A stretch of DNA of 64,000 nt, taken from positions 63,178,001 to 63,242,000 of the forward strand of contig OX597820.1 of NCBI GenBank assembly GCA_951406725.2, given 5' to 3'. The notes under the pieces were generated by a model. It made no database searches and was not told the DNA's origin. It saw nothing but the letters and a program-made list of their open reading frames with translations. The position numbers were made by a program, and so were the translations under genes. The stretch comes from Octopus vulgaris (lineage: Eukaryota). Below are positions 4,590 to 57,770 of the stretch, piece after piece; the first letter of the stretch is position 1; each line of letters opens with the position of its first letter.

Positions 4590-5315
4590 CTATTTAAAAT
4601 ATTTTAAAGGTTTGATTTTTGAATGAATACAAGACAGACCCAACTCTATTTGATAATTTAGTACATTTTTTTTTCTATACTTTAGAATCTCGTATGTCTT
4701 CATGGAACAGAGTTGACAGCCTACCCTATTATTTCTATAACTACCCATTCTAACTATTACCCATTTTAGGTTATATTTAATATTATTAGTTTTGAGTTCC
4801 CAAATTTTACTGGAAAGTGTAGTGCAACCTGCTTTAGGATCTAATCGGAAAGAGGAGAGATGATTGCTAAATCTCTGTTTAAAATTAATAGTACAACCCA
4901 GGTAAAAATAGTTACTATAAGAAGTTGTTTTAGTACATTTATAGATTACGTTATGGACCGAACAACGACCAGATGCCGGACATTTTGACTTAATCCTACA
5001 ATTGCAACTAGGGGGATAATTTTCAGATTTAGAATTATTTAAGGACAGATCTCTCACATTGCTGCTATTCAAATTATTATGAATATTATTTTCGTTATTA
5101 TAGGTAATATTGTTATCCAAAGTGGGGTTATTATTTATTGATATGTTTCCACTATCATTTAGATCTACCATAACAATATCACAATTACCTACATTATTGA
5201 TATTGCTATTATTATTATTTGTATTTATATCCAAGTAATTATTACTGCTATAGATATAATTGTTATCCTCATTCTCGATATTATTTCTAATTGTATTATC
5301 TTTATTTTTATCATT

Positions 5316-5321
<6 letters not shown>
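4590..5321 (-). mobile_element. Penelope-like retroelement 3' fragment: Asn-rich linker plus GIY-YIG endonuclease
   Basis: CNCRIKSKCPASGRCSVHNVIYKC...YFYLGCTINFKQRFSNHLSSF...LSSKIWELK...CQLC matches the PLE Cys-rich linker plus VIY-YLG motif. The 5' end runs into (TA)n. Confidence 0.85.
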
Positions 5322-5385
<64 letters not shown>

Positions 5386-5395
5386 GCATGTATGT

Positions 5396-5590
5396 ATTTG
5401 TCTCCCCACCGTCGCTTGACAAACGACGAGGTGTATTTACGTCTCCCTAACTTAGCAGTCCGACAAAGGAAACCGATAGAATAAATTAAATAATAAGCTT
5501 ACAAAGAATAAATCTTGTGATCGATCTGTTCGACTAAAGTCGGTGCTCCAGCATGGCCACACTCAAATGACTGAAACAAGTAAAATAATG
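5396..5590 (+). mobile_element. SINE family B, 3' half; a 5'-half fragment lies at ~3908-4005
   Basis: Matches 42995-43190 (cgcttgacaa...ggtgctccagcatggcc...aaatgactgaaacaagtaaaa). Confidence 0.8.
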
Positions 5591-13780: not shown

Positions 13781-14193
13781 AGGCGGCGAACCAGCAGAAA
13801 CGTTAGCACGCCGCGCAAAAAGCTTAGTAGTATTTCGTCTGCCGCTACGTTCTGAGTTCAAATTCGGCCGGGGTCGACTTGCTATAAATCCTTTCGGGGT
13901 CGATAAATTAATTACCAGGTACGCGCTGGGGTCGATGTAATCGATTTAATACCTATGTCTCTCCTTGTTTCCCCCCTCTATGTTTAGCCCCTTGTGGGTA
14001 GTAAAGAAATAGGTATGTCGTCTACCGTTACGTTCCGAGTTCAAATTACGCCGAGGTCGACTTGCCTTAAATCATTTCGGGGTCGATAAATCAAGTGCCA
14101 GTTACGCACTGGGGTCGATGTAATCGGCTTAATCCTTTTGCCTGTCCTTGTTTTTTATCTCTATGATTAGACCCTTGTGGGCAATAAAGATAT
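13781..14193 (+). mobile_element. SINE family A (tRNA-like head, Deu/Nin-like core) with a duplicated body and an ~18-bp TSD
   Basis: ggcggcgaaccagcagaaacgttagc..gagttcaaattc..tcctttcggggtcgataaa; the body occurs twice. Flanked by aagattatt(t)tcttcatga at 13761-13779 and 14194-14211. Confidence 0.85.
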
Positions 14194-14266
14194 AAGATTA
14201 TTTCTTCATGAAATATGACACCGTTTTCTTTCTTTCTTTTTTTTTTGTTGATAATCGTGTTTGCAG

Positions 14267-17945: not shown

Positions 17946-19816
17946 ATATTTCTTGCACTGAATATGTTAATATGAGGTAAATTATAATATCCCAAATGCT
18001 ATTAATAACGTATTAGTGACTCGTAATTATTATTAGAATGTTAACCTTGCCACAAGACCCCAGAGAAAGAGAAGCACACAGAAATAGTAATTAAATTATC
18101 ACCTACCCTCGTATACTACACATACATAACACAAATTAAGAACTTAGATTAAGAAAATAATATATCTAAATGCATACGATATGTTTTACATATTTTATAT
18201 ATAATAGCATAATATATTTAACATTTACATTGATATAATTTTCTGACAACCAAGTAGAATAGTTTGGCGTGATGAGGTGTTATCATTTTTCAAATTTTCA
18301 GCCGGGATTTAAAAGCACATCATATTTCGTTTGATTGGAGTTTTGTATTTTGCTCAATAATCAATGACCTCATTTAGTCTTGTTTTACCATTAATTTACT
18401 CTGTGCATACTTTTAACTGTTTACAAACTGAATTTTATGATTACACCTATTTGTGGCGGTAAGCTGGCAGAATAGGTAAACTGGCATGCGGGGGCCAAAT
18501 GGTTAGCAGTTTGTCGTTGGCTTTTACGTTCTGAGTTCAAATTCCGTCGAGCTTGACTTTGCCTTTCCCATTTTAGGAGTCGATAAAATATGTTGAACGA
18601 TGTAATCGACTCAACCACTCTCCACGAAGTTTTGGTTTTGGGCTAACTTTTAAAACCATTAGCACATCTATTTATCTATTCTTTATTTCATACAGTTCAA
18701 GCATTTTCATACGTGTGTCTCTTTTAGCTATTCGAAAAGTTTAGAGTCATTTCTATATATTCTACATAGACTATCGAAAGGTTTTTTTTTTTTTCCAAAT
18801 TATTCTCTGAATATTTATCTGAAATATAATTGAGAACTATTTACAAAAAAAAAAAACCTAGAAAAAAAGCAAAACAAAACAAAGCAAAAGACAAAATCTG
18901 CATCGAAAAGCGGAATGGAAAGGAGAATATTATATTTGCAGGGAGAAACAACAATCTTCAGAACTGCAGCAAATAATTCGAATTCCTGGTATGCTCAATA
19001 ATAATGACGACGTTGATGGGGCAAGCGAGGCGTTGTCTTATGCCTAACACCTCAAAGTATGTGCATCTCACCGGCCAATCTTGCGAACAGATTTTATTAG
19101 AAGCGCGTAACACAAACCGAATGTATTTTAGATGATCTTTGTTCCATGTACAGAGTGAAGCCATGAAATTCAAAAGCATGTGGTTGGTTAGAAAATATCT
19201 TATACACGGTACCAATTGTGCATTTATACAAATTATAAGATATTTGAAATACTCTTAGAATATTTCAACAATTTTTTTTTTATTAAATGATTTAAACGCT
19301 GAATGTAATAAAATGCTTTCAAATATTTTTAATCTAGTAGCAAATTTAAAATATTTTTGATGTTACCTCTTACTGCATTAATTCATCACCTAAACCTGTT
19401 TTATATTCATATATTTATTAAATAGAAACATACAACTATCACCTTTCACCGTTCACAATTACTGTTTTATTATTTTGCTAGCGACCATGATTAAAGAATC
19501 GCCCATCAAAGAAGCATTCTTCAAAGCATAGTTCACAAAAGAGATTCCTTTGATTCTGCTAAACCATTCCATTTTCAGCGTCATTGACCAGCACGTAGGC
19601 AGTCGGTAAGTCGACTCGAGAGGTCAGTTACGAAAAACATATTAAAATATGGTTCACTACATATTGAAATTGAAGTTATCGACAGCATTGTGGATGATTT
19701 TCAATGTTGCATATATCAATATTATATATATATATATATATACACACTCTTAGAATATTTCAACAATTTTTTCTTAGATGATTATATATATATACGCATA
19801 TCTACATACATATACA

Positions 19817-20190
19817 TTTACTTGTTTCAGTCATTTGACTGCGGCCATGCTGGAGTATCAACTTAAAGGGTGTTAGTCGAAGAAATAGACCGCTAGACAT
19901 ATTCTGTGTAAGCCTAGTATTTATTTTGTGGTTCTCTTTTGCCGAACCCCTAGCCCAAGGGGACATGATCACACCAGCAGCGGTTGACGAACGATGGCGG
20001 GGGCACAAACAGAGAAACACAGACACACCGACACCCAAATAATATACATATATATATATATATACGGCGGGCTGTTTTCAGGTTCCGGCTACCAAATCCA
20101 CTCACAAAGCTTTGGTAGACACCAACCCAAGGTGCTACGCAATGGGACTGAACCCGGAACATGTAACTGGAAAGCAAGCTTCTTACCATG
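19817..20190 (-). mobile_element. SINE family B, near full length, with an internal (TA)n
   Basis: Reverse complement of the 42789-43200 copy. Confidence 0.8.
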
Positions 20191-20229
20191 CATCCATACC
20201 GTTGAGGCGAGAGTCATGACACCCCTTGC

Positions 20230-21420
20230 GAGAATAGACTTGACCGAACGATTATAAATAGTAGCGGTCTGCGTGAGATTAGGCGTTAATCGCAGGAAAT
20301 CGTAAGGTGTCGTATGGGCAGCTTGTACACATGTACATATTTACGTGTTAGTGTCGCATGGGGCAGATCGTTTGTGTGCAAGGCAGTTATACTGCCCGTG
20401 ACAACATCGTTGGTATGGGCTTGCATAGAGACGGTCCTGAATGGGCCAACCGAATCTCGAGTCCTTTCCTACGGATAGCTGTGTAGATGGCACAAGTGGA
20501 ATACTCATTGAAGTGGGAGAATCATCAAGAAACAGGATTTACAGAGATCCCCCTTGCGGCGTTTAGCTGGCCTGTGTTCCTGTAACGGGGTTAGTAACGG
20601 ACGTAAGGTATCCGATGGCTCCAAGTATCTTTAGGAACTGAGTAACATATGCGTCCCGAGTTGTGTTGTCACTGCAAGTTTTACGTATCGGGGTTTATCT
20701 TGGCCTCGATAGGGAAGGCCGATTTATAGTGGACGAAGATGTCCCAGCAAGCAGATTTTGTGTATGACACCGTGTCAATCTTCTCCTCATCCGTGGTGTT
20801 TAGCAAAAACTGAAGCAACAGGAGGGAACCACCATTCTAAGGGTATTTAATGGTGAAGTTATTGAACTTCTTCAATATAGTGGAGGCGTCCTCTTGGGAT
20901 GGGGTGAGCATAACGATGTGCGTGGTAGGTGCTGAGTGCCCTACGCTTAAGCTGGTCTAAGTAGGCAATATCGAGCGGGCATGATAGGCTGGACCCCAGA
21001 GGCAGGCCTAAATATTCCCAATACGTGTTGTCCAAGAAATCGTAGTGTGTATTGGTAAATATAACTGATAGAAACTGGTGTGTTTCCGAAGAGGTAGTTC
21101 GAAGCAGTGTAAGTCCAAGGAGGTGGTACATTCTGTGTTCAGATCAACTGCAGTAAGAGCAGGAATCGAGGTGTATAGGGAAACCACTTCTAAACTGAAA
21201 GTACACCTGTTGTATCTGAGCGTACGGGTTCGAGACTTCGTTTCAGCCGTTGAAAACTTACGTACCTGGACATTTCCAAGACTGGTTTCCTTCTGAAGAC
21301 TGGCCTTTATGCTTGAAGTTTAAATCTTTTATTAAAATTGCTGCATTGTCAGAAGGTTTCTATATTCTCTCTCTCGTTACGTTCTTCAATATTACAATGA
21401 TTCAAGCGAACTACAACGCT
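20230..21420 (-). mobile_element. Degenerate Penelope-like reverse transcriptase remnant
   Basis: Minus-strand motifs FSLEVVSLYTSIP (~21163-21201; PLE consensus SxDVxSLYTxIP), GLPLGSSLSCPLDIAYL (GxPMGSPLS) and thumb-like SYTKSACWDIFVHYKSAFP. Boundaries approximate. Confidence 0.7.
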
Positions 21421-21421
21421 C

Positions 21422-21500
<79 letters not shown>

Positions 21501-21635
21501 TTAGTAAAATATGCCTTACGGAAATATGCCAAAATATGCCAACGGAAATATGCCTTAGTAAAAAAGGAAAAAAATTATTTCGTGCAAATCTGACCCTGAT
21601 ACATACGATACAGCTAAGGGTCAGACCCGATTCTG

Positions 21636-22060
21636 ATTGGTCAACAAGTTGATGACGTCTAGCTCTGCTAGAATGGACAGGATACAAACAGGGGACAGTC
21701 ATTAGTCAGAATATTGATGACGTCCTTTTCTGCTTGACTAGTCACCTAACAAGTACAGACAGGGGGCAGATCTAATGTAGCTATAAGTCGTGATTGGGCA
21801 GAATCTGGATGACGTCCCGTTCTGCTTGACTAACGAAGCGACTGGTCAAAACAGGAAACAAACAAGAGGCAGTTATAATGCAGCGATTGGTCAAAATGAT
21901 GATGACGTCCCGTTCTGCTTGACTAAAGCCACCTAACGAAACGATTGGTCAAAACGTTGATGACGTCACGCTACGCTGGATTGACCACCTAACAGGCATT
22001 ATAAAACCGAGCACTTCACAAAACTCACTAGAACCACCCAGCGAACATCCACCATGGGTC
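21636..22060 (+). promoter_or_regulatory. Pol II promoter-like array: 5x [ATT(G/A)G-N12-TGACGTC], TATA box, Inr-like site, Kozak ATG
   Basis: ATTGG (ATTAG in unit 2) at 21636, 21701, 21793, 21886, 21944, each separated by exactly 12 nt from TGACGTC at 21653, 21718, 21810, 21903, 21961. TATAAAA at 22000, CTCACT around 22027, CCACCATGG at 22049-22057. Confidence 0.65.
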
Positions 22061-22320
22061 ATCACAATTGCTTAAGGTAAAACTGAATTCCTCGCTCTTT
22101 CGGAAACATCAATCTTCTGTATTGACCGCTTTCCACCACTTTGATCTGTTTTTTGTATTGAATACGTATCGCCACCGTGGGCCACTGCATCGAACACTTT
22201 GAACATATACTTCAAACTATATATCAACTATACATGAACTCTAAGATGTCTGACTCCGTTGTGTATTATAAATGAATTTCTTGTGTTTGACGGCATGAGC
22301 TGTCTTTTTTTATATATGAC

Positions 22321-22366
22321 TTTTTTTGATAAGGTTCATTTCAGGAACTGAAACATGTTATAATGT
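22321..22366 (+). ncRNA. Hammerhead-like motif with U3-A8 core (weak stem I)
   Basis: TTGATAA (22326-22332)-GGTTC-ATTTCAG-GAACT-GAAA-CATG-TT-ATAATG, with a palindromic CATG stem III. Stem I is only partly paired. Confidence 0.35.
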
Positions 22367-22421
22367 ATATATAAAAATTAAAAATTGTATAATACAGCAG
22401 CATTTTCGAACTTCATTTTTT

Positions 22422-22478
<57 letters not shown>

Positions 22479-22888
22479 GGACATTACTACACATAAATGC
22501 CTCACACTATGAGGGACTCTTAAAGTCAAAACTAGCATAATAAACACATTGTACCGAACGCGAAGGAATGCAACTCTCGAAGCGACCCTTTTAAAAACAG
22601 ATTTCGCCGCAGGTCATATGAATTCATAATTAGTGCACAAAATGCACCTTTTACTCTTCAGTGCAGGCATAATCAAGACACATAAAAATGAACAAAGAAA
22701 TCAACATACCAGACGAACACCAAATGTATCCAACACAGTACATAGACTTGTTCCCACTTATATATCTATGTAAGAGGCGGGATTTTCGAATTGCATCCTG
22801 GTACCCGTGTTTATTCAGAATAAAATTCATCACTGAATATATTCTGGTTAAATTTACAATTTAGTTTTGAATTTAAGAGTCCCTATAT

Positions 22889-22955
<67 letters not shown>

Positions 22956-23157
22956 ATATACGCGTGCGCATATAACACATTTACATACACAGATACGTAC
23001 AAATCTAATCTGGCGTGTGTGTGTGTGTTTTGTGCCTATGTAGTTTATTCTATATCTTCGCACACATGTTTGACAATGAGTGCAAGCATATACACACCTT
23101 TAATATACTCATATTCTTATACACATTGACTTGAATATTCACATCATATGCACAATT

Positions 23158-23220
<63 letters not shown>

Positions 23221-26200
23221 TAACACATATATATATATACATATATACATATATACATACATATATATGTGTGTGTATACATACACATACATATATACAT
23301 GCATATCAAATGTATACTCATCTTACTTTACAATATCGAGGAAAACCCTCATGTACATGTGGCAAAATTATCATTTTAATATTCATTTCATCGAATGTTG
23401 ATAGAATGTGTTTACATTTAATCTCACGTAAGAATTAGTTTTGCATTGGTTGATGGTGTAAACATCAATGCACTATAGTCCGCCAACAGGTAACGTTGTA
23501 CATCAAAACAGTGTCACTAACAGAAATGGAGCAAGTACCATTAGGTATCATTCTCCCATCTTCATATTTGCTTCGTAGTAAGACTCTTATCTAATAATGG
23601 TTATTTTTTGATTGTTTGAACATATTTTTCTCTCTAAGCTACACGGAGTAATTTAGATATATAAACGAGGTTTATTTGGATATACTTAGAAATTCACCCT
23701 AAGCGGCGTTCTGGCAGAATCGTTTGCACCCCAGGTATAAAAAAAAATTGCACCAGCTTTTCTTCAGACTTTATACTCAAATTCAATCGAGGTCGATTTC
23801 CCAATACTTTATGTTCCCCTAAAGCAGGGAGCTGGCAGATTCATTAGCACTGTGGGCTAAATGCTTAGCGGCAATACTTTTACATTCAGGTTCTGAGTTC
23901 AAATTCCGCTGAGGTTGAGTTTCCTTTTCATCCTTTTGATGTCGATGAAATAAGTATCAGGTGAATATTGTATTGATGTAACCAACTTACACCTTTCCCC
24001 TAAGTTACTAACTTTATGCCAAAATTTGAAAACAATGTTCAATGTCTAGACATCAGGTATATAATATGTAACTGAATTTCATGTACGTTATTTGTTAAAT
24101 GTGGAATCCGTTGAACAGATTCACTTGAAATCTACGAAATTATGTTTCATGTGTAAGGTTATCTCTAAAGATTTTCTATGGAGCTCAAAATGAAATTATA
24201 GCACTATTAACACAAGGTAGGACACAGTATAGACTTCTGAACCTATAATATACTTAGAAGTATTACGGTAACAAAACGAAATGCTATTGGCTTGCCAGCA
24301 ATTAGATATGAAATTATGTACTCACAGGACATAAACGACACCCACTGTACAAGAGAGAATAGAAACATAATACCCCTCATCAGCATGACCTTAAACTTAA
24401 TATGAGAGTTAATCTCATTACACCGTTGCCAATAAACTGAAAGTTTCAAACCAAGCAGATTAAATCAACTGCATCTTTATTCAAAAGACAGGGATATAGC
24501 AACTAACTTTCCCAATCAAAATTATGTGACTTTCCCCTCCGCTCAACAAATGACTATGCGTGTTTCCTATAACCTGTTTTCTGATCTGAACATAGTATTT
24601 GGAAATTTTACATAATAAAAATTTACAGTCAGATGTATTTCATGCTAACTGAGCTTCAATACCATACGTTGTATATTTCCATATTATATTCTACATTGTA
24701 ATAGACATCCTGTGTTACATGCTCTAACACTTTAATGTGTATTATATGTTCGGAATTCTTATTGTCTTTATATGTGATTGCTTGGCTGATTGTCCTTGCC
24801 TAGCTGTATAAGTTTACGTATGTGTATGTGTACGACTATATGCATATGAACATACACACACATATGATGTAGTATGTGTGTGTGAGCGCGTGTGTGTATG
24901 TGTGTGTGTGTGTGTGTGTGTGCGGGCTTCCGTGAATGCGAATATATCATGTATATGTGTGTTTCAATATGTGGTAACGCACGAAACGCTCAGCCCTTGA
25001 GCTACTCTGATGCTTCTGCCAAATACTGACGAATACATGTATATAACATACTCATGTTTTCAGTTGTATATATATGTACATGAATATATATGTATATATA
25101 TATATATACATATATATATACATATCAAAATGTATGCATGTATCCATATGCATATAGATGAATGTTTATATACATGCACACACTCACACACGCTCTCTCT
25201 CTCTCTCATGCATATATTTTCACCCCTTCCTCCTCTAATAGACATATTTAATTCAATCGCTCGCCATATTTCGTTCAAAGTTACTCATCCACGCTCACTA
25301 CAAAATTTAATTTATGGCTCTTTAAAGACACTGATGCCATGGAGATTCTCTGTGTATATATTTGTATGTCCGTGTCTATGTACGTTATGTAATGCGTGTA
25401 TGAGTGTTTGTATGTGTGAGTGCACATGTGTGTGAGTGCTTATGTGTTTGTGTGCATATCTACATTATAGAGAATAATCTTCAGTAATGATAGAGGACAT
25501 GTAATCCATTCACTAAATATAATCTGAAAAATTACTATTATTTCAATCTGTATTCAGAGAATCTTTCAAGTTATATTATTATTCGATTATAATTCTCTCA
25601 AATAATACCTTTGTCTCATTAAAAAAAGAAGGCACTTTGGATAATATAATACTTGAATACTTCATAGCCCTAAAATGACTGTGCAGAGAAGGCTTTCGAT
25701 CAAAAGTGACGTGAAGTTAAACAACAAAAGCAAAATGTGGTATCGAATGAACCTCTACGCGGAACGTAAGATTCCTGGCAAGAGAAATTTAATTCTTCTC
25801 TGCATTATAATATAATATAATATAGAAATACTTAAATGAATAAAAATACAGAAAGAGAAAAGGATAGAAAGTAAGAAAGAACGAAAGAAGACCGAAAAAT
25901 TGGATAATGCATTTACAAATATAGTGTACCTTAAAATAAAAGATGGATGGTCCTTTTATAGGATTAGAGATATTCTTAAATAAAACTGCCCTACTGTGGC
26001 GAAAATAAGTAGATAAGTACATATTGGTGGTAATATGTTGTAACTTGGTCTGCCCGAAATGGCAACCATATCTCCCTGTCATCTCCCTGTTGTTAGAGGA
26101 AGATATCGCCTGCAATAAAAGCAGAACTAAAAACAACAATAACCTCTTTTATTCTTTCAGATTTTGTCTTACTTTTGCAAAGACACTCGTTTCTCATTTT

Positions 26201-27499: not shown

Positions 27500-29340
27500 A
27501 AATCAGAGCCAAGACTCCAAAACTATTATAGACTCACAATAAAAATTACATGTAAGCAATGCATTGAACATAGTAGAGATAGGTTTACTTTTGATAGGCT
27601 TCTTTATTAAGACGAGCTTCTGTTGAGATCCACTCAGCAAACTTATACAGAGGGAATATATAGAACTGTGGTTGCAATTGTTTTGCACATGCATCAAATA
27701 TGATCGCTGAGATGTATCTGGCGATATTGTGGTGAAGCTATTTGTTTCCGGTGCACTGTACAGCGGTGACGGATAGAATTTTCTGTACTTCTGATATAAT
27801 CTTTTTGGCAGCCCGAGGATTTGATCACATAAATTAGATTTTCGGACGCACAAGTGAAATCTGATTTGATTGTAAAGTGTTGCACTTGTTTGAAATGGCA
27901 TTTTGACCCTTCCAAAAGGTTGGGGCATGTCCACAGTAAGAGCGATTACAATTTTTCCAGTTTTGCGTTGGCGGTATTTGGAAGTAATTTTGTATTTATT
28001 AGTATTTTCTTTCATGACTTGGGCTGTTTGTTGCTTTTGATTATTTTAAGGTAACGTAGAATTCTTTTCAGTTTAGGGTCCTTACCTAGTATTGGTAGGC
28101 TTTGCATGATTCTGTTCAATGCTTCTTTGTTTCTGGGGTTGTATGTTAATATGTAGCATAATGTTTTTTAGAGTAGGTTTGTTGTTGTCTTTTGTTTTTC
28201 TTAGTGCCTCAGTATTAATGGATTTCGCACCTTTTACCCCTTCGTTTATAAGTTGGTTTGGATAGTGCCTGTCCAGGAATATGTTTTTGAGTTCTTGTAA
28301 TCTTAAATCCCTGGCATTTTTCCCCGAAACGATAGTGCAGATCCTTCTCGCAAGATTGAAGGGGTGTTTGCTTTCGTATGTCTCGGGTGACAAGAGCTAA
28401 AGAGAAGGTATTGCTTAGCATCTGTCGTTTTATAAAAGATATCTGTTTCTAATATGTTGTTGTTGTTTGTGTGCTTTTTTAATAGTATGTCCAGGATGGT
28501 AGTTCTTCGTGGTTGTATTCTACAGTAAATTGAATGTTTGTGTTGATGCTGTTTACGAGTGTTTTGAATTCCAGGAATTTGTTTATGTTTTTATTCCATA
28601 GTATGAAACAATCGTCTAAAAGTCTCTTTCCATTTTCCGTTAAGAATTGGGCGAGAGAGTCTCCAAGTTTTAGCAGTGATTTCTGGTACATTGTTTGTTC
28701 TAAGACTCCCATTGTAAGATTGGCAATCGTAAGTGCTGCGTTCGTACCCATCGCAATTCCAGATTTTTGGCGGTAGAAGGTGGTATCAAACATGAAGTAA
28801 TTATTACGGAGGATACATTTTCTGGATTCAATGATGAATTCTTTGTTCATTCGTTCTTGTATTTCTTCTGGATATTGTTCCAGCCAGAATCGAATTGCTT
28901 CTAATTATGTGGTAGGTTGGAATCTAAGTTCATGACATCGAATGTAACCATGAATGGTTATTCCTCAGCCTGTTCTGGGAGGTGGTGCAACATATCCAAA
29001 TCATCTCTGATATAACCTTTAATGTGTTTTAGGTATGGCTTCAGGAGAATGTCTATGAAGCAACTTAATCGGTGGGTCTCAAAGGATGGGCCAGATATGA
29101 TGGGTCGTAATTTTAGGTCTCCTGGTATTGGTGTATGTATGTTTGCATTACGTTTTTGATGGTGTCGTCAATGCTTAGGATTTTGTGACTTTTAAGAAGA
29201 CCATAGAATATACTGGGTTTACATTTGAAATTTGTCATGGTATCTGTTTCTTTGTAAGGTCTTTTTCATGGGCTTGAACCAGTGGGAGTAGGTTTTTCAT
29301 TGTTTTTTGGAGAATTGTAGTTGTTGAGTTTTTCATACTA
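27500..29340 (-). mobile_element. Penelope-like retroelement, decayed RT plus GIY-YIG ORF
   Basis: Ordered motifs KPSIFYGLLKSHK, LKLRPIISGP, VTFDVMNL, NNYFMFDTTFYRQKSGIAMGT, RLLDDCFILW, IQFTVEY, PFNLARRICTIVS and FTCASENLIYVIKSSGCQKDYIRST, split by frameshifts. Confidence 0.9.
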
Positions 29341-30057
29341 TTCATAATAATTTAATATGATATTTGGAGTAGGATGTGTTCATGAATACAACTTCAATTC
29401 CTTTATCTGCTTAATTTATATATATGATGTTTTGCTTTGGAAAGATTTTTATAAGGCTTTAACTTTCATTGTAGTAGTATCTATGGAAGACCAGAGGAAT
29501 TCTTATTTGAATGGGCTTAAAGAGTGGTTGCAATTTAACATATAATTTAGTTATTGCAGTTTACTATTAATACCGATATAATGTACATTGTTTTATATCT
29601 TTCTTTGTTGTACTTTTATTAAAGTTAGTGCTTAATCCTGCCTATATATTGATTGATTGAAATAATGTGGTTATTAAACTTTTCCTTTTATATTATAATA
29701 CGGAAGACGGTAGGGGTTATAATTTTCATATGACGTAATCGAGTTGTCGCTGTTCAGTTACGTATTTAGGTGTGGATGTAATTTACTTACTGAATTCATT
29801 TATCGATACGGTTGAACACAGGGTAAATGTGTTCGAAATTTGCGGTCTCCTTGCATTGTTTATTCCGAAACAACAATTATTTTAGTGTTGTTCACATCGC
29901 TGGATTGAAGGGTACTGTCCAGGTGCCGAAACCATAGTGATATCCGTAGGGCAGCTGATGATGGAGATATGTTGCATTGTTGGAATAGCACTTTTTGTAT
30001 ATGTGGAATAGTATTATTGGATTGTTAGTATAGCTGTATTATACATATATATGTATT

Positions 30058-34961: not shown

Positions 34962-35197
34962 CTATCTTATCTATCTGCTCACAATGGACGGACGCTAGTC
35001 ATATCGGCTCCACGTAAGTTGGCCACTTCTACATGTTTAAAACTCCTTGTTGTCAAATATTTTGTTTTAATCGTTGTGCAAGTTCATTCACTAAAAAACC
35101 TGAGAATTATTCACGTAGAATTCCGCCCCTGTATGGGCGAAATTACAAAAAACTTTCAAAACTTTCGTGGGTTTTTTAGCCATTTTTCATTTTTAAA

Positions 35198-37193
35198 ATG
35201 GCAACTAGAAACCACGTGGCTAGCCCGCCAGTCATGCAGAACGGTAGCAAAACACTATTGCTACCACTAGCTGCTAAACATCGCAGGGTGAACACCGCTG
35301 TCACCACCATCACTACCACCACCAACAACAACAACAAAACTAACGTCGCATTCACCATCGCCGCGACCAAAGACATTAACTTAGATTTCCCCTCACTCCC
35401 CACACCACTTGTTGATGATAAAGGGACGGAGAAAGGGATTTCAAAAATGAATACAAACGAAAACATGAATGCCAGCACCACCACCATCACCACCAACAAC
35501 AACAACAACGAAATTGGCACAAAGCCGCCTACCAAAGACAACACCGCCAACACCAACACCACTACTACGACGTCAAATGCTACATCTAAGCCTTCTGCTG
35601 CTAATACCGCCAACACCAACACCACTACCATGACTTCACCTGCCACAATTAACACTTCTACTGCCAAATTCAAAACGAATTTTGCGGACGTAACAAAACA
35701 AAAAAGAACAATTGTAACATTCACCACACAAGAGATAAACCGCACAAAGGCACTCTTCTCCAAAGAAGGAGACAAATTGCACCTTCACATTCCACAACAC
35801 ATCGTGGAAAACACACACAAAAAAACAATAATTTATAAAGTAATAAACAAGAAAACAAGAAGAACAGAAAATGCACCGCAGGAAAAAATCGAAAAATGCC
35901 TTCGTCCTGCATGGGACTCCAAGGAATATATCAGTTGGGGAAACAAATTTGGTACAGTCCAAGTACGTTTCCTCAACGAAAGTTTAGCAAAACGTTTTTC
36001 CACATTGGAGCTGCATTCGGACGACTTGGTAATGATACCAATCTATTTAAACAAAAGGGTCACGAAAGTCCAAATAAAAAACATACCACTTGAAGTCGAA
36101 ACACAATGGTTGGTCTCTGCCATCTGCTTTGAAATGACAGAGACAATGTCAGAGACAAACATCCTTGAAATCGCGGTTCTAGGAGAGAAAGACTATGTGG
36201 GCAAATCAATCGAATTCCTGCTTCAATTGGATGAAGCAGCAAGAGAGAAGATACCCACCGCTATAGAACTGCCAGGAGGCTACAAACTCTATATAGTGGT
36301 AGAGGGCAGGCGACCACGCTGCTATTTGTATGGAAGCGAAACACACTTGAAAAAGACGTGCCCAACCACTGCACACCAAGAGCAACAACAACAACCACTA
36401 CCACAACCAAAGCACTCCGGAAAAAAGCTCTACTACCCACACCACCATCAACACAGAAGACGACAAGAGAAGCACACCAAGCTAATCCGTCATCAACCAA
36501 AAACCACTCAACACCTGAAAAAATACCAACACCACCAACAACAGCAAAACCCAAAGGAACAGAAAAACAAAGAAAACACACACAAACTGATCCCCCATCC
36601 CTTATACCGCACTCAACACACACAAACACTCAACAACCAACAACAACGAAAACAACAACACAACCACTTACACAGACATACATAGAAGCCCACAACATAC
36701 CCCTACCCCTACTGATTCCTCAGAAATTTCGTCGGAAGACGAAACCAGTGAGGAATGGCAAATAGCTACAAAAAGAAGGAAAATAAAGAGCAGAAACACA
36801 ACCAAACCAAATGCAAACACGAACAAAGCAGGGGGAAATACATCTCACGAAGACATTTCAAAACCCAACGCAAACAACAGCCACACCAACACCACAAAAA
36901 TATATACAGCAAACATGCTCACAGCTATAGACACCAAAAACACAAATTTGATGGAATACATCCAATCAAAAACAAACATAACAGAAGATGACATAAAAAC
37001 AAACAATCACCCATACACAACACCACCAGACCACATCAAAATATTACACATCTCCAAAAGTCTGCACCACACACTCAAAGGCATTTTCCCCAGCGCGGTT
37101 GGTAAATGCCAAAAATATCTCACAAAGAAACTGTACTGGGATCTCCTCGAGGACAAACCAAAAGAGGAGAAAGCAAAAACTTTCGAGCAGTAA
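35198..37193 (+). CDS. Tx1-like ORF1 (nucleic-acid binding, zinc knuckle), with two apparent frameshifts
   Basis: KVQIKNIPLEV (RRM-like) and IVVEGRRPRCYLYGSETHLKKTCP (CX2CX4HX4C with C>Y). Continues through frames 36358-36765 and 36915-37193, with shifts near 36390 and 36710. Confidence 0.75.
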
Positions 37194-37237
37194 GTAACCC
37201 TCTGTTCCTTTCACTTGTATTCTAATTCATTAGGACT

Positions 37238-40200
37238 ATGATCAAGATTGGTTGTGTAAATGCGCGTGGCTTGGGGTCCCCTTGGAAACAAGGGTACCTC
37301 TTAAATGACATAAAGTCACATAAGTTAGAAATCATAGCCATAAGTGAGACCAGACTCCACAATCCGCGGGCCCTAAAGACCATGTTTGGCGGACAGTTCA
37401 ACATTTATTTTTCCCCCTGTCTGCCGAGAATGGGCGGTAGTGGCACCGCGGTACTTTTTCACAAGAGTCTGGATCTCAAAGTAAGGACAATATTCGTAGA
37501 CCCGGAGGGTAGACTGGTCGTCCTGGATGTCGACGGCAGCAATGGGTGCGCTTTTCGACTCGTATCAGTCTACACACCGCCCTTAACAGGTCGGGCGGAT
37601 TTCTTTCAACGTCTAGAAGTATTCTTGGGAACGTCTCGTCCTTTACTCTTAGTGGGGGATTTGAATGCTACCTTGGACACGCATGTAGACTACGTGGGTA
37701 GAGAATAGACGGGGATGCAAATGCCTCAGAGACCTGCTCAGACGCTTTCAACTGTCTGACAAGTTCCGACTAGACCACCCGAATGCGCCAACGTGGACAT
37801 GGAGCAACCGCATCGGGTCGTCGAGATCGTATCTAGATAGGATACTGTGTAGGACAGTAGACAGAGATAGCATAGGATGTCCACAATTCCACATAGTCAG
37901 CTACACGGATCACAAACTTGTGACATGTACGCTAGACTTAGGTAAGACACTTAGGCAGGGTCCTGGATACTGGAAACTAAACGCGACTTTCCCATCGAGA
38001 CAGGTTTTCAGAGACCGGATTAGCACACTAGTAAAGAGGGCTTTGACGGGAGCCATCATCAACAACAAATGGTGGTTTGCCCTCAAGAGAGCAGTAAAAG
38101 CAGAAGCGATTAGGTACAGCAAAGCACTAGCCATAGATAGAAATAGAGTAGAGGGTGAGCTAGTTAAGAAGCTAGAAGAGGCAATTAGAAGCGGCATCGC
38201 ATCCGACGTTTTGGCGGCGAGGTTGGTCCTCGACCAACACTTCAACGCCAAACACGAAGGATGTGCTGTCAGAGCTAGGATGCGTGCTCTAAGGAACGAA
38301 GGTGTTGGAGCCGCGAGAGAGGCCCGGGTGGCAGAGGCGCAACAGGGCAACAAAGCCACCATTCGGTCCCTGGTAGATGAACAGGGGCGCGAATTGCTCG
38401 AGCCAAGTAAAATGTGTGAGGCCTTTCAGCAGCATTTTGCCCGACTGTTCGGAACGAGTGGAGGGCAAGAACGTAGGGTGGACTTCAGTGCCTACCTACA
38501 TAGCCTACCACGACTCTCGACAAGAAAGGCAGGGTGCTGCGAAGGTGCCATCACGGCGGCGGAAGTGCAGGAAGCGATGGCAGAATGCTCGAGGGACAAA
38601 TCACCGGGTTTGGATGGTCTACCCTACGAGCTTTACAATTGTATGCCAGACTTGTTTGGAGATCTCTTGGCGGCGGTGTACTGCAACTGGCAGAAAAACG
38701 GGAGCATTCCTGGTTTTGTGAGCCGAGGAGCCGTAACACTGCTGAAGAAAGATCTAAACAAGGGAAATGTAATAGATAACTTTAGGCCCATCACTCTGCT
38801 TATTGCAGACTTGAAAATTTTGGCCAAGGTGCTAGCCAAGAGGTTGGCGCTTGTCATCGAGAAACTGGTCGACAGGGCGCAAACATGCGCCGTGCCAGGC
38901 CGGACCATCCATGACAAACTCCACCTGATGCGCTACATCATAGACAGGATAGTTAACGAACCTGGCATGGGTGGGGCGCTGATCAATTTGGATCAATCGA
39001 AAGCTTTCGATAGGGTGGACCATCGATACTTGGAGGCGGTCCTCGGAGCGGCTGGCTTCGGTCCCGTCTTCCGCGGCTGGATAGCCGCTTTGTACAGAGG
39101 CATCCGTTCGGTAATTCGCGTGAATGGACATCTATCGAGACCCTTCGACATCGCACGTTCGGTCCGTCAGGGATGCCCCCTCTCGTCGCTTCTATACGTA
39201 TTGACTCTCGAGCCATTATTGCGGAAGCTGGCAACCTTGAGAGGCATCCCGCGAGAACTGGGATGCGGGACGAGCGTGTCTGCATACGCGGACGACGTCA
39301 CCGTCATAGTGTCTAGCCACGAGCACATCGAGCAGGTCGGCGAGACACTGAAAAACTACGAAGCGGTGACAGGAGCGAAAATCAACCGGGAAAAGTCAGT
39401 GGGCTTGCGACTAGGCACCTGGAGAAGCAAGCCCATGCCGTCCACCAGCGCCTCCGTCGTGGGACGCTGGACCGACGACCCGGTTGAGTTGCTCGGGGTC
39501 TGGTTTGGTCCGGACCTCCAAGTGGAGAAGAACTGGAACGAGATAACGAGTAGGGTGGTCACTCTCGCCCGGCAATGGGCCGAGAGGAAACTGTCCCTAA
39601 AAGGTCGGAAGGAGGTGGCGAACACGTACATCGCGTCCGTCATCTACTACCGCCTGACCGTCGTACCTTGTCCCGACCCTACCATCACCAAACTACAACG
39701 CATTCTCTTTCGCTTCTTGTGGAAAGGATGCGTCCCGATGGTCAGGCGATCCATTTGCTGTCAACACCCGTTAAAAGGAGGGCTGGGCATGTCGTGGTTG
39801 ATGATGCGCAGACACGCGCTGAGACTGCGACATCTCTGGCTCTATGTAGACGACGGTGAGCAGGTGTGGTCGCCGTTTGTGAGGCACGCTTTCCCGCAGC
39901 TCGTCTCCATGACCGAACTGCAGTCGTGGATCAAAAAGAGGCCGAAGAAGGGCGAATGGCACCGCGAGTGTCGCGTTGCTCTCAAGCAACTCTGCCGTCC
40001 TGGGTCGACCTTGAGTGACTTCATCACAACCAAAGCATTCTATTGGGGTTTAGTGGAGGGGAGGTACGACGACGAGCTCGGGGCGAACCTGGACGTCGAC
40101 GAGGAGTACCTGACCCGCCTATTCAGGACGACTTTCGGGCCAGGGCCCATGGACAACTTCCAGAGATCCCTGGCCTGGCAGTGCTACCGAGAAGCGCTAC

Positions 40201-40670
40201 CCGTTCGGGATAAGCTCTACAGACACGGCTCGAGAAACACGGGGCCGACCTGCCCGAGATGCGGTCAGAGCGACGAAACCGTTCTGCACGCACTCGTGCA
40301 GTGTCCGACAATTTCCGACCTGTGGGCTTATGTCGAACAACTGCTGTCACGTGTGGGACGAGTCGGTTTATCAGCTGAGTCTATCGTCAATATTGTCACG
40401 CCTCCCTCCTTCAAACGGGAAGGAAGAGCTATTTTCATCATCCTTGTGGCTATGGCGAAAGAATGTATCTGGTGGACGCGTCTGAAAGGATTGGAGACAA
40501 ACACTTTCCTCTCTGGTCAATCTCTCATCAACTTCTTCAAGTACCACTTGAAAAGGAAAGTGAGAGTAGAGAGGCAAGTTTTGTCTAGCGAATGTTTTAA
40601 AAAAAGATGGGTGAATGTAGCAAGAATGGCACGTATGAATGACGAAGCCACCTTGAGCATGATCCTATGA
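37238..40670 (+). CDS. ORF2: APE endonuclease, reverse transcriptase and C-terminal CCHC; one frameshift near 37700
   Basis: NARGL, ISETRL, VGDLNA, then in the shifted frame TWTW..SYLDRIL..YTDHKLV. RT motifs KSPGLDGL, FRPITLL, DQSKAFDRVDH, VRQGCPLS, YADD; C-terminal CPRCGQSDETVLHALVQC. Confidence 0.93.
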
Positions 40671-50860: not shown

Positions 50861-51605
50861 GTTAGTTAGTTAGTTAGTTAGTTAATTTTGGCTCAAAAGC
50901 AAATAGCAAGGCCATGTAGGGGGACATGGAGTTAAGTACAGGGTGGTGTTCATGTAAAGAGTTCAGGCCACTTGAGGTCAAGGGAGACTTTGAACAAAGT
51001 GGCCGTCGGCATCTTCACCATCTCGTCTGGCAGCTTGTTCCACGGATCCGCAACCCGGACGGAGAAAGCTCCTCTCCTTCGATTGAGATGAAATTGTCGC
51101 AGGTAGAGCATTTCGGAATGACCCCGCAGCCGACGCTCTGGAGCAAGAGTGAAGAACAGCTCTTTCGAGAGGTTACACTTTCCGCTTATGATGTTGTGAG
51201 CGAGAATGAGATCACCACGGCGGCGGCGTTTTTCTAGAGAATAAAGGTCGAGCGTCCTCAGCCTTTCTTCATAAGACAAATTTTTGAGACCATGAACCAT
51301 GCGGGTAGACAGCTTCTGGACTCTTTCGAGATGCTGTATGTCTTTGAGGAGATAAGGAGAAGAGGCTTGAATCCCGTAATCCAATATGGGTCTCACCAGC
51401 GTGACATAGAGTGGTAGGAATATGGCTGCTGTGAGCATTCCGAATAACCGTCGAATCAAGAACAGAATTCCGCGTGCTTTGTTGGCAGCATGGACGCACT
51501 GGGCCGAAGGCGAAAAGGAGGAATCCACCAAGATACCCAGGTCCTTTACCTGATCGGTCCTCTCCAGCAGCAGACGACCCGGCTCGAAATCAAGTTGAGT
51601 TGCAA
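50861..51605 (-). mobile_element. 5'-truncated CR1-clade LINE 3' end with a (TAAC)n tail
   Basis: KDLGILVDSSFSPSAQCVHAANKA...LYVTLVRPILDY...LERVQK...YEERLRTLDLYSLEKRRRRGDLI...FSVRVADPWNKLP. Short 3' UTR and (GTTA)n on the + strand at 50861-50884. Confidence 0.92.
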
Positions 51606-51731
51606 GGCACACACATACACCACACACACATATACATATATATAGAGAGAAAGAAGAGAGTAGATAGTCAGGCAGACAGATAGATAAATAAATAGATAGG
51701 TAGGTAAATAGATAGATAGATAGATAAATAA

Positions 51732-51811
<80 letters not shown>

Positions 51812-52568
51812 GACAGTGACTACTTCAATAATACAGTACTATAAATATATTATTCATTAATGTATTATTAGCAGCATTAGTGTTTATTATCAGACGCTTG
51901 CTCGTTCTAGAAAGAAACGTGTTGTACACGACAGAAGCAGAATTGAATTACATTCGCCAAATACCGCAGTGACTGTGCTGTTTCAGTTGCGGGAACAGTC
52001 AGGAAAGTTTCCGCAAAACCAGTGAACAAGTCTATCAGGTGATTTTATCTTAAACAATTACACAGCTTCATGCCATTTAACAGTGTGTATACCTTTACTA
52101 TGATACACATACGCGATTGTAGGGATTGTGGTGCCTTAAATTACAGTTACAAAATTTCATATCTCATTTCGCTACCTGCTCCGAGTAATAAATATTAATA
52201 TCCAAATGTGACCAGGTATGATGTTAGATCATGATTGTATTTGGTTTAATTCAAGCACAACAATAATAGCAAAACGCAGCAATACAAATATCAATGTTGG
52301 TATCGCACCTTCATCTAAAATAAAGCAAAAGTGTAGACCTGAGGTTATTTTTTTAGAAATAAGAAATAAATGATTATATAAATATTTGGGACAGACATCC
52401 ATAATTGCGTGTTTACTACTTATTATTATTAAATTTATTCTATTTTGTGATTTGAGTCAACATAGATTACAGTTTAATAACTATTCCGCAATCGCTTTTT
52501 TCCCTGATTTTGCGCTGCATACATGTCCTTAGTCACAGTCTGTGGAAGTTTTTTTCTTTTTCTTCCAG

Positions 52569-57186: not shown

Positions 57187-57770
57187 AGGCGGCGAGCTGC
57201 CAGAACCGTTAGCACCCCGGGCGAAATGCTTAGCGGTACTTCGTCGGCCTCTACGATCTGAGTTCAAATTCCGCCGAGGTCGAATGTGACTTTCATCCTT
57301 TCGGGGTCGATAAATTAAGTACCAGTTACGCACTGGGGTCGATATAATCGACTTAATCCGTTTGTCTGTCCTTGTTTGTCCTCTCTGTGTTTAGCCCCTT
57401 GTGGGTAGTAAAGAAATAGGTATTTCGTCTGCCGTTACGTTTTGAGTTCAAATTCCGCCTAGGTTGACTTTGCCTTTCATCATTTCGGGATCGATTAAAT
57501 AAGTACCAGTTACGAACTGGTGTCGATATGATCGACTTATTCCGTTTGTCTGTCCTTGTTTGTGCTCTCTGTGTTTAGCCCCTTGTGGGTACTAAAGAAA
57601 TATATATTTTGTCTGTCTTTACGTTCCGAGTTCAAATTCCGCCGAAGTCAACTTTTCCTTCCCTTGTTTCGGTGTTGATGAATTAAGTATGTGTTGCGTA
57701 CTGAGGTCGATCTATGTGACTACTCCCCTCCTCCAAAATTTCGGGCCTTGTCCCTAGAGTAGAAGAGAAT
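57187..57770 (+). mobile_element. SINE family A with three tandem bodies behind one head
   Basis: Bodies restart near 57420 and 57605, each after aaagaaata. Confidence 0.85.

Follow-up and report, generated by a model that had tools for sequence, protein, structure and literature searches.

A solo pseudo-LTR of a young Penelope-like element in the Octopus vulgaris genome, with a CCAAT+CRE module array, a likely promoter and a splice donor that can be joined to host exons

The segment 21541-22428 of the window studied here (the whole 64,000-nt stretch of Octopus vulgaris DNA that was analysed) is a solo, 5'-truncated pseudo-LTR (pLTR) of a young Penelope-like element (PLE), and not a stand-alone unit (Table 1). 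We hold it probable that this pLTR, inserted in a (TA)n tract, is of a kind from which, in tandem copies, Pol II likely transcribes the element, and which can splice a first exon onto host exons when left alone. An initial annotation, made from the sequence alone, had described an ordered series of motifs in this region, and every motif that it named is present at the position given. It had considered that these motifs might form a PLE terminal repeat, a retrozyme or a viral relic giving rise to a self-cleaving RNA of ~330 nt. The first of these options is borne out by linkage to an RT-GIY-YIG open reading frame (ORF) and by copies with the structure pLTR-ORF1-ORF2-pLTR.

Table 1. Features of the pLTR in the window and of the full-length copy L047
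Feature	Position	Strand	Basis or remark
Solo 3' pLTR (3' UTR) of a young EN+ PLE	21541..22428	+	Own-genome similarity search and locus comparison
(TC)n(TA)n tract, target microsatellite, left of insertion	21421..21497	.	Sequence; (AT)n after the 3' ends of all 30 loci; empty C9 paralogue site
(TA)n tract, right flank of insertion	22426..22475	.	Sequence
Stutter at the 5' junction: five ATATGCC units, duplicated from the one unit that the family has	21494..21554	+	Private to the window copy
9-bp inverted repeat	21589..21625	+	Left arm different in sister subfamily
Five reverse-CCAAT + N12 + CRE-like modules	21636..21968	+	Starts 21636, 21701, 21793, 21886, 21944; tandem duplicates
Position equivalent to 5'-end cluster of long copies	21941..21958	+	5/18 ends, in module 5
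TATA box with Inr-like site; start predicted at 22027	22000..22029	+	TATAAAA at 22000, TCACT at 22025-22029
8-codon upstream ORF, MGHHNCLR-stop	22054..22080	+	ATG at 22054; not conserved in sister subfamily
5' splice donor, boundary 22076|22077	22074..22082	+	Used in chimeric RNA-like contigs from two other copies
Minimal type-I hammerhead, U3-A8 core variant	22306..22377	+	Core 22326-22359; GAAA 22350; predicted cut after 22359
Candidate 3' splice site in loop II, ends 22344	within 22306..22377	+	Best internal acceptor
ORF1, 466 aa	L047:3615-5015 (C14)		Full-length copy
ORF2, 765 aa, -1 frame relative to ORF1, overlapping; also has its own ATG	L047:4934-7355 (C14)		Full-length copy

The search for copies and linked ORFs that the initial annotation had suggested yielded many copies and a linked PLE-type RT/GIY-YIG ORF. 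Querying the octopus genome with positions 21560-22425, and scoring 40 of 1110 candidates, gave 43 matches, 37 of which cover the whole 866-nt query at 94-100% identity; a 25-nt hammerhead probe has 625 exact matches in the same genome, and its reversed control none. The mean identity of 51 complete units, taken from 50 loci, is 97.2%. Upstream of the unit, shared sequence continues in 26 of 30 loci, and the stop codon of ORF2 is reached in 25 of the 30. Complete copies read pLTR-ORF1-ORF2(RT+GIY-YIG)-pLTR and are embedded in (TA)n. Among 20 loci chosen by an ORF1 match, 12 carry a direct pLTR piece upstream of ORF1 (three are complete, and one of these pieces is preceded by an ORF2 end). Both ORFs are intact in 3 of 20 long copies. 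Because it is linked to ORF2 and repeated upstream of ORF1, the unit is the pLTR of a PLE of the endonuclease-bearing (EN+) type.

Other properties of the copies are those of PLEs: the pLTRs come from partial tandems, inverted pLTR pieces and 5' truncation occur, and 6 of 30 loci have an optional tail of ~30 nt beyond the pLTR, identical to what comes after the upstream pLTR in tandem copies. All 30 loci have (AT)n directly after the 3' end. Such pLTRs, tails and microsatellite targeting are among the PLE hallmarks given in the accessible parts of PMC8557442 and PMC11167929, and the optional tail of EN+ PLEs extends 30-40 bp beyond the pLTR. No related loci were found in metagenome contigs.

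Non-LTR retrozymes are non-coding head-to-tail monomers bounded by hammerheads. An independent, non-autonomous element of this kind, with a self-cleaved RNA of ~330 nt mobilised in trans, would account for the hammerhead near the 3' end and for the 4 of 30 loci that have no common upstream sequence, and retrozymes have been proposed to be derived from pLTRs (bioRxiv 10.64898/2026.07.22.740005, accessible part). However, the solo copies begin at differing points, as random 5' truncation predicts, and head-to-tail monomer arrays are absent from the loci examined. All 30 insertions also end ~66 nt or more beyond the predicted cut, which therefore cannot be what sets their 3' end; the insertions further include the upstream modules, which an RNA of 330 nt could not carry, and such an RNA is therefore not the mobile unit. 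With 25 of 30 loci running upstream into the RT-GIY-YIG ORF, neither the self-contained, self-cleaving unit of the initial annotation nor its retrozyme and viral-relic options find support. The ORF-linked copies largely refute the retrozyme-like explanation, which we regard as very unlikely.

ORF2 matches the Pfam families RVT_1 (E 1.2e-6, slightly below the curated cut-off) and GIY-YIG (E 3e-6), the endonuclease being C-terminal, and has no integrase match in Pfam. It has 540 homologues at E<=0.001, the best 120 of which, those listed, are 42-58% identical, and it contains a DKG motif, a CX4CxxC linker (found in 120/120 of the homologues listed) and a CCHH motif. Compared by eye with the accessible rows of Figs S1-S2 of PMC8557442, the 24 residues from its CxxC to the next Cys resemble the ~25 of two Neptune rows rather than the ~10 or fewer of the Nematis rows, and its RT motif B is Neptune-like rather than Nematis- or Poseidon-like. 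The DKG, CX4CxxC and CCHH motifs and the long linker spacing thus favour Neptune over Nematis, Poseidon, Hydra and Naiad, and the family probably belongs to the Neptune clade, a placement by motifs and not by a tree. Naiad/Chlamys (N-terminal EN, DKA) does not agree with the C-terminal EN and DKG, nor the Hydra clade (DKT, no CCHH, CxCX5C) with DKG, CCHH and CX4CxxC.

ORF1 has a charged, probably coiled-coil N-terminal half and an N/H/P/Q-rich C-terminal half with a duplication of ~46 aa. It has no known homologue: we found no convincing Pfam match, no Atlas match and no longer homologue in which it is fused, the last of these being weak evidence. A slippery heptamer, T TTT TTA, lies in the phase of ORF1 in 17/19 copies and suggests a gag-pol-like -1 frameshift joining ORF1 and ORF2; pseudoknot-free folding gave no stable structure behind it (z 0.65).

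LTR retrotransposons have fixed TG...CA ends and an integrase-bearing pol. Reading the unit as the LTR of such an element, or as the relic of a viral promoter, draws on its CCAAT/CRE array and TATA box, which are like those of LTR promoters, and on the binding of NF-Y to LTR12 and MLT1 in human cells (PMC3730095, accessible part). Against this, the linked ORF encodes a PLE RT that has GIY-YIG at its C-terminus and gives no integrase match, the 5' ends are ragged, TG...CA termini are absent and the insertions are found in (TA)n. The full-length copies refute this explanation by their structure, and we assign it almost no probability.

The window copy is a 5'-truncated insertion in which the pLTR alone was retained. 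At its 5' junction ATATGCC occurs five times (21494-21554), four times as the full AAATATGCC. Since the other 29 of 30 loci carry none or one, this run is a junction stutter of a single-copy unit; the repeats seen initially at 21495-21555 are real, and their interpretation as iterons is not supported. The hairpin reported at 21589-21625 is confirmed as a perfect inverted repeat of 9 bp (arms 21589-21597 and 21617-21625).

The initial annotation had also connected the unit with a remnant of an RT at 20230-21420 on the reverse strand. This remnant is old and heavily decayed, and belongs to an unrelated family, probably of PLE type. It has no tblastn or blastn match to the ORFs of the pLTR family, and against the homologues of ORF2 it gives weak patches of 24-50% identity (best E 0.001) and no domain match to their profile. 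Its own relatives are ~70% identical and lack the unit in 7/7 cases fetched, so that the proposed connection has no support. The last ~165 nt of the remnant (21255-21420) form a separate repeat of ~80% identity with many copies. Elsewhere in the window, we noted a broken copy of another Neptune-like PLE (27594-29458, reverse strand), with ~45-65% amino acid identity to ORF2 of the pLTR family, and a nearly intact LINE-type element (35180-40670, forward strand) with a 501-aa ORF1-like frame, an endonuclease frame and a 993-aa RT frame. A GIY-YIG-bearing PLE fragment at 4590-5498 (reverse strand) is one that we take by eye to be Hydra-like, and 50950-51819 (reverse strand) is presumably the C-terminal fragment of a CR1/L2-like LINE. 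Tandem units of 183-184 nt, at 13830-14194 and 57235-57649, belong to an abundant SINE-like repeat, which we assume to be one known from octopus genomes.

Five modules of the form ATT(G/A)G-N12-TGACGTC are found in the unit, with none elsewhere in the 64-kb window; 2000 dinucleotide-shuffled versions of the 510-nt stretch contain none either. As initially described, they lie at their stated places with an invariant N12: there are no spacer indels, and the gaps between modules are 41, 68, 69 and 34 nt. Across the five modules, ATTGG retains 24/25 letters and GATGACGTC 45/45, and the full palindrome TGACGTCA is confined to module 5. The supposed divergence of the spacers was overstated, their mean pairwise identity being 70%; the flank 3' of each CRE is also partly common, and both features show the modules to be old, diverged tandem duplicates. 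Module number varies: with a loose pattern, 39 of the 51 complete units have five modules, 9 have four and 3 have six. We found no such module within 1.8 kb of the EN in three more distant PLE families, several of whose copies are broken. Cooperation between CRE and CCAAT boxes is known from the fibronectin promoter; it did not emerge from our literature search and is not drawn on here. As the CRE-CCAAT spacing is unlike the 10-12 bp seen in human composites, the putative NF-Y and CREB/ATF identity of the binding factors, and a possible cAMP response, are taken from the names of the motifs only.

Related subfamilies indicate which of these motifs may matter. In a sister subfamily (53 probe matches) the pLTR is ~78% identical to that of the main family. 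The TATA-proximal module of the sister has a spacer of exactly 12 nt in 12/12 loci, only 4/12 identical to that of module 5 in the window, and an exact CRE in 10/12. The TATA box and donor are retained in 12/12 loci and the Kozak ATG is absent from all 12; the geometry of the TATA box and Inr-like site is similar, and both, together with the donor, persist across the ~78% pLTR identity. Judging from this retention, the modules, the TATA box and the donor look to be under selection; no such sign is seen for the mini-ORF, the hairpin or the "iterons". The sister subfamilies as a whole (L080-L091, L108, L118-L120) have ORF2 DNA 87-95% identical; each copy contains 1-6 modules, and the hammerhead core is unchanged while loop II differs in sequence.

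TATAAAA at 22000, the Inr-like site near 22027, the ATG, the MGHHNCLR frame and the donor were all found as initially described. The significance attached to a Kozak mini-ORF found no support, as the ATG is missing not only from the 12 sister loci but also from a copy on C15 that still splices (see below). A fusion of the mini-ORF from its first codon to ORF1 was rejected, as no YAG acceptor yields it.

Use of the donor could be followed in contigs from four public runs, presumed by guess to be RNA (among the runs listed as containing the sequence, none was recorded as RNA), which were compared with the full-length copy L047. Two of the runs, X1 and X9, which come from two studies and carry two organism labels, each have a contig that departs from the element at L047:3178, immediately ahead of the donor (22076 in the window). 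The X1 tail matches two paralogous places on C9, directly after a pyrimidine-rich CAG acceptor; at one of these paralogues the donor of a solo, four-module pLTR lies 1117 nt upstream of the acceptor, and at the other the equivalent site is an empty, short (TA)n with no insertion. The X1 exon continues into a frame of 271 aa that encodes nine C2H2 fingers. The X9 tail matches a single place on C15, after a pyrimidine-rich CAG acceptor 595 nt downstream of the donor of a solo pLTR, and that pLTR is the one without the ATG. AGs internal to the element are skipped in both joints. Splicing gives GT-AG joints over 1117 and 595 nt, and DNA would not; donor use into host acceptors is thus shown at two loci, each joint being a single contig (two contigs in all) and both coming from copies other than the window copy. 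Of the portable promoter splicing into host exons that had been envisaged, the splicing part therefore stands, with two chimeric contigs, canonical host acceptors and a donor equivalent to 22076 used at two other copies; the promoter part is a prediction.

The same runs contain a third donor-side loose end (X6), which leaves 7 nt beyond the donor. In addition, a CAG lies 35 nt upstream of the donor, and one X9 contig enters there, so the chimeric exon could also be a cassette exon inside a longer transcript and not its first exon. The loose end of this contig matches C5, where there is neither a clean donor nor, within 1.5 kb, a pLTR. Contigs cannot show transcription starts. Among the joints listed in all four runs, with 8 loose ends and 209 pieces lying beyond the listing, none connects the donor to an internal acceptor, the one in loop II of the hammerhead included; an intron retained in the pLTR or 5' UTR, as EN+ PLEs can have, is thus a candidate only.

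These observations bear on a more passive explanation, in which the unit is the same PLE pLTR, but solo copies are inert: host read-through would pick up the strong donor (exonisation), and the module array would be a slowly decaying minisatellite without selected function. The tandem-duplicate nature of the modules, with spacers 70% identical and 4-6 units per copy, agrees with this explanation, as does the CAG acceptor 35 nt above the donor that one contig enters. It is less easily reconciled with the retention of ATTGG (24/25) and GATGACGTC (45/45) and the lack of spacer indels while gaps range over 34-69 nt, with the last module of the sister, which swapped its spacer yet kept the N12, and with the survival of the TATA box, Inr-like site and donor at ~78% pLTR identity. 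We therefore consider passive solo copies unlikely, and prefer a pLTR that carries a likely promoter.

The C9 region itself (G000:C9:60852413-60916726, L063-L069) is a cluster of 8 single-exon C2H2 zinc-finger ORFs with 8-22 fingers. It includes an inverted duplicate pair of ~4.5 kb, and the solo pLTR is present in one paralogue only, 1.1 kb upstream of the coding exon.

The hammerhead-like motif first noted at 22321-22366 is present, with its core starting at 22326, and occurs in 47/51 pLTRs. U3-A8 replaces C3-G8, stem II has 5 bp, helix III is palindromic, and the weak proximal helix I is closed by a distal A/U helix. The base pair at the base of stem II is G-U in the window copy and G-C in the sister, so that pairing is kept while loop II has changed. 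An Rfam scan of 19500-24000 returned no hammerhead (E<=10) or other credible family, only microsatellite-driven miRNA matches, and the minimum-energy fold of the isolated hammerhead stretch differs from the active fold. For PLE hammerheads, a U3-A8 variant, a dimer model and low in vitro activity have been reported (PMC4209133), and hammerhead cleavage was dispensable for insertion in vitro (PMC11167929; accessible parts of both). As the candidate acceptor sits in loop II, splicing and ribozyme folding would exclude each other; the loop-II AG is absent from the diverged copy L108.

The 5' ends of long copies were mapped at 22 pLTR-body junction loci (L100-L121), of which 4 diverged ones were dropped, leaving 18 ends. 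Five of the 18 fall in module 5, in a span of 17 nt (P 0.0005-0.006 under two simple nulls, post hoc), and three fall within 8 nt of the predicted cut (P 0.001-0.011 under two nulls, post hoc), where TA microhomology could be the cause of the cluster. None of the 18 is at the predicted start, the nearest being at the TATA box and the donor. Such clustered ends bear on what defines the template RNA of PLEs, and on whether the hammerhead cuts in vivo.

We propose that NF-Y-like and CREB/ATF-like factors would bind the repeated modules of the upstream pLTR and drive transcription from its TATA/Inr region, and that the RNA would cross ORF1 and ORF2 (possibly linked through a -1 frameshift) before continuing into the downstream pLTR. 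The GIY-YIG endonuclease would nick (TA)n and reverse transcription would begin near the end of the pLTR, so that every insertion would carry the promoter and most would stop short. In the window copy, reverse transcription would have halted at the 5' edge of the pLTR and stuttered. Cleavage by the minimal hammerhead would probably be weak or take place in the dimer, and some templates may owe their 5' end to it. The steps that we infer in this scheme are promoter activity, factor binding, frameshifting and ribozyme cleavage.

A bolder scenario appears possible to us, if doubtful. An active Neptune-type PLE with an LTR-like, copy-number-variable NF-Y and CREB/ATF enhancer array would scatter hundreds of signal-inducible alternative first exons in a cephalopod genome and would already rewire expanded C2H2 zinc-finger clusters, filled and empty paralogues providing a natural control; long RNAs would begin within the last module or where the hammerhead cuts. 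For LTR elements, the donation of promoters to host genes is well documented. A young family with intact ORFs gives testable cases of promoter donation by a PLE, and the zinc-finger paralogues with and without the insertion offer a direct test of the effect of the pLTR on host expression. In the literature searched, with Repbase and most subscription journals lying outside the search, we came across neither a description of this family nor a pLTR with a CCAAT+CRE array, and no report of cephalopod RNAs in which PLE and host sequence are joined. No octopus Neptune family appears among the rows examined in the supplement of PMC8557442, where Naiad and Hydra families are listed.

With the Neptune EN+ PLEs described in the accessible parts of Craig et al. 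(2021, PMC8557442), the octopus family shares the DKG RT, a CX2-5CxxC linker and, at the C-terminus, GIY-YIG with CCHH, as well as microsatellite targeting, partial-tandem pLTRs, inverted pieces, the optional tail and a hammerhead near the 3' end. It differs from them in its separate 466-aa ORF1, which overlaps the -1-frame ORF2 and carries the slippery heptamer; the legend of Fig. 1 in that paper allows for an ORF1 with a frameshift, the clade not being stated. The hammerhead resembles those of other metazoan PLEs (Cervera and de la Pena 2014, PMC4209133, accessible part) in its U3-A8 covariation, which is reported there in Schistosoma Cercyon, its palindromic helix III, its weak helix I and its location in the pLTR. 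In D. virilis the end of an intron likewise overlaps the ribozyme, whereas the octopus candidate acceptor lies in loop II and not at helix I (PMC4209133). Human composites of NF-Y with bZIP/bHLH factors (PMC7793273, PMC3730095, accessible parts) similarly have a bZIP-type site 5' of CCAAT at a constant distance (an order that applies here to the minus strand) and form arrays in LTRs, but their distance is 10-12 bp and the centre of the octopus CRE is ~18-19 bp from that of the CCAAT box, so the geometry is not the same.

The closest parallel is the Penelope element of D. virilis (Schostak et al. 2008, PMC2377424, accessible part), in which the pLTR also contains the promoter and a conserved donor follows ~46-50 nt after the start; reporter work there led to the proposal that the pLTR drives downstream host genes or exons. 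By analogy, the octopus pLTR would work in the same way (PMC2377424, PMC3846280, as far as accessible). The promoter of D. virilis Penelope is, however, TATA-less and internal, consisting of an Inr and a downstream element, whereas the octopus pLTR has a TATA box and an upstream, copy-number-variable CCAAT+CRE array that is LTR-enhancer-like; and, as a further difference from D. virilis Penelope, splicing to host exons is seen in RNA-like contigs for the octopus family.
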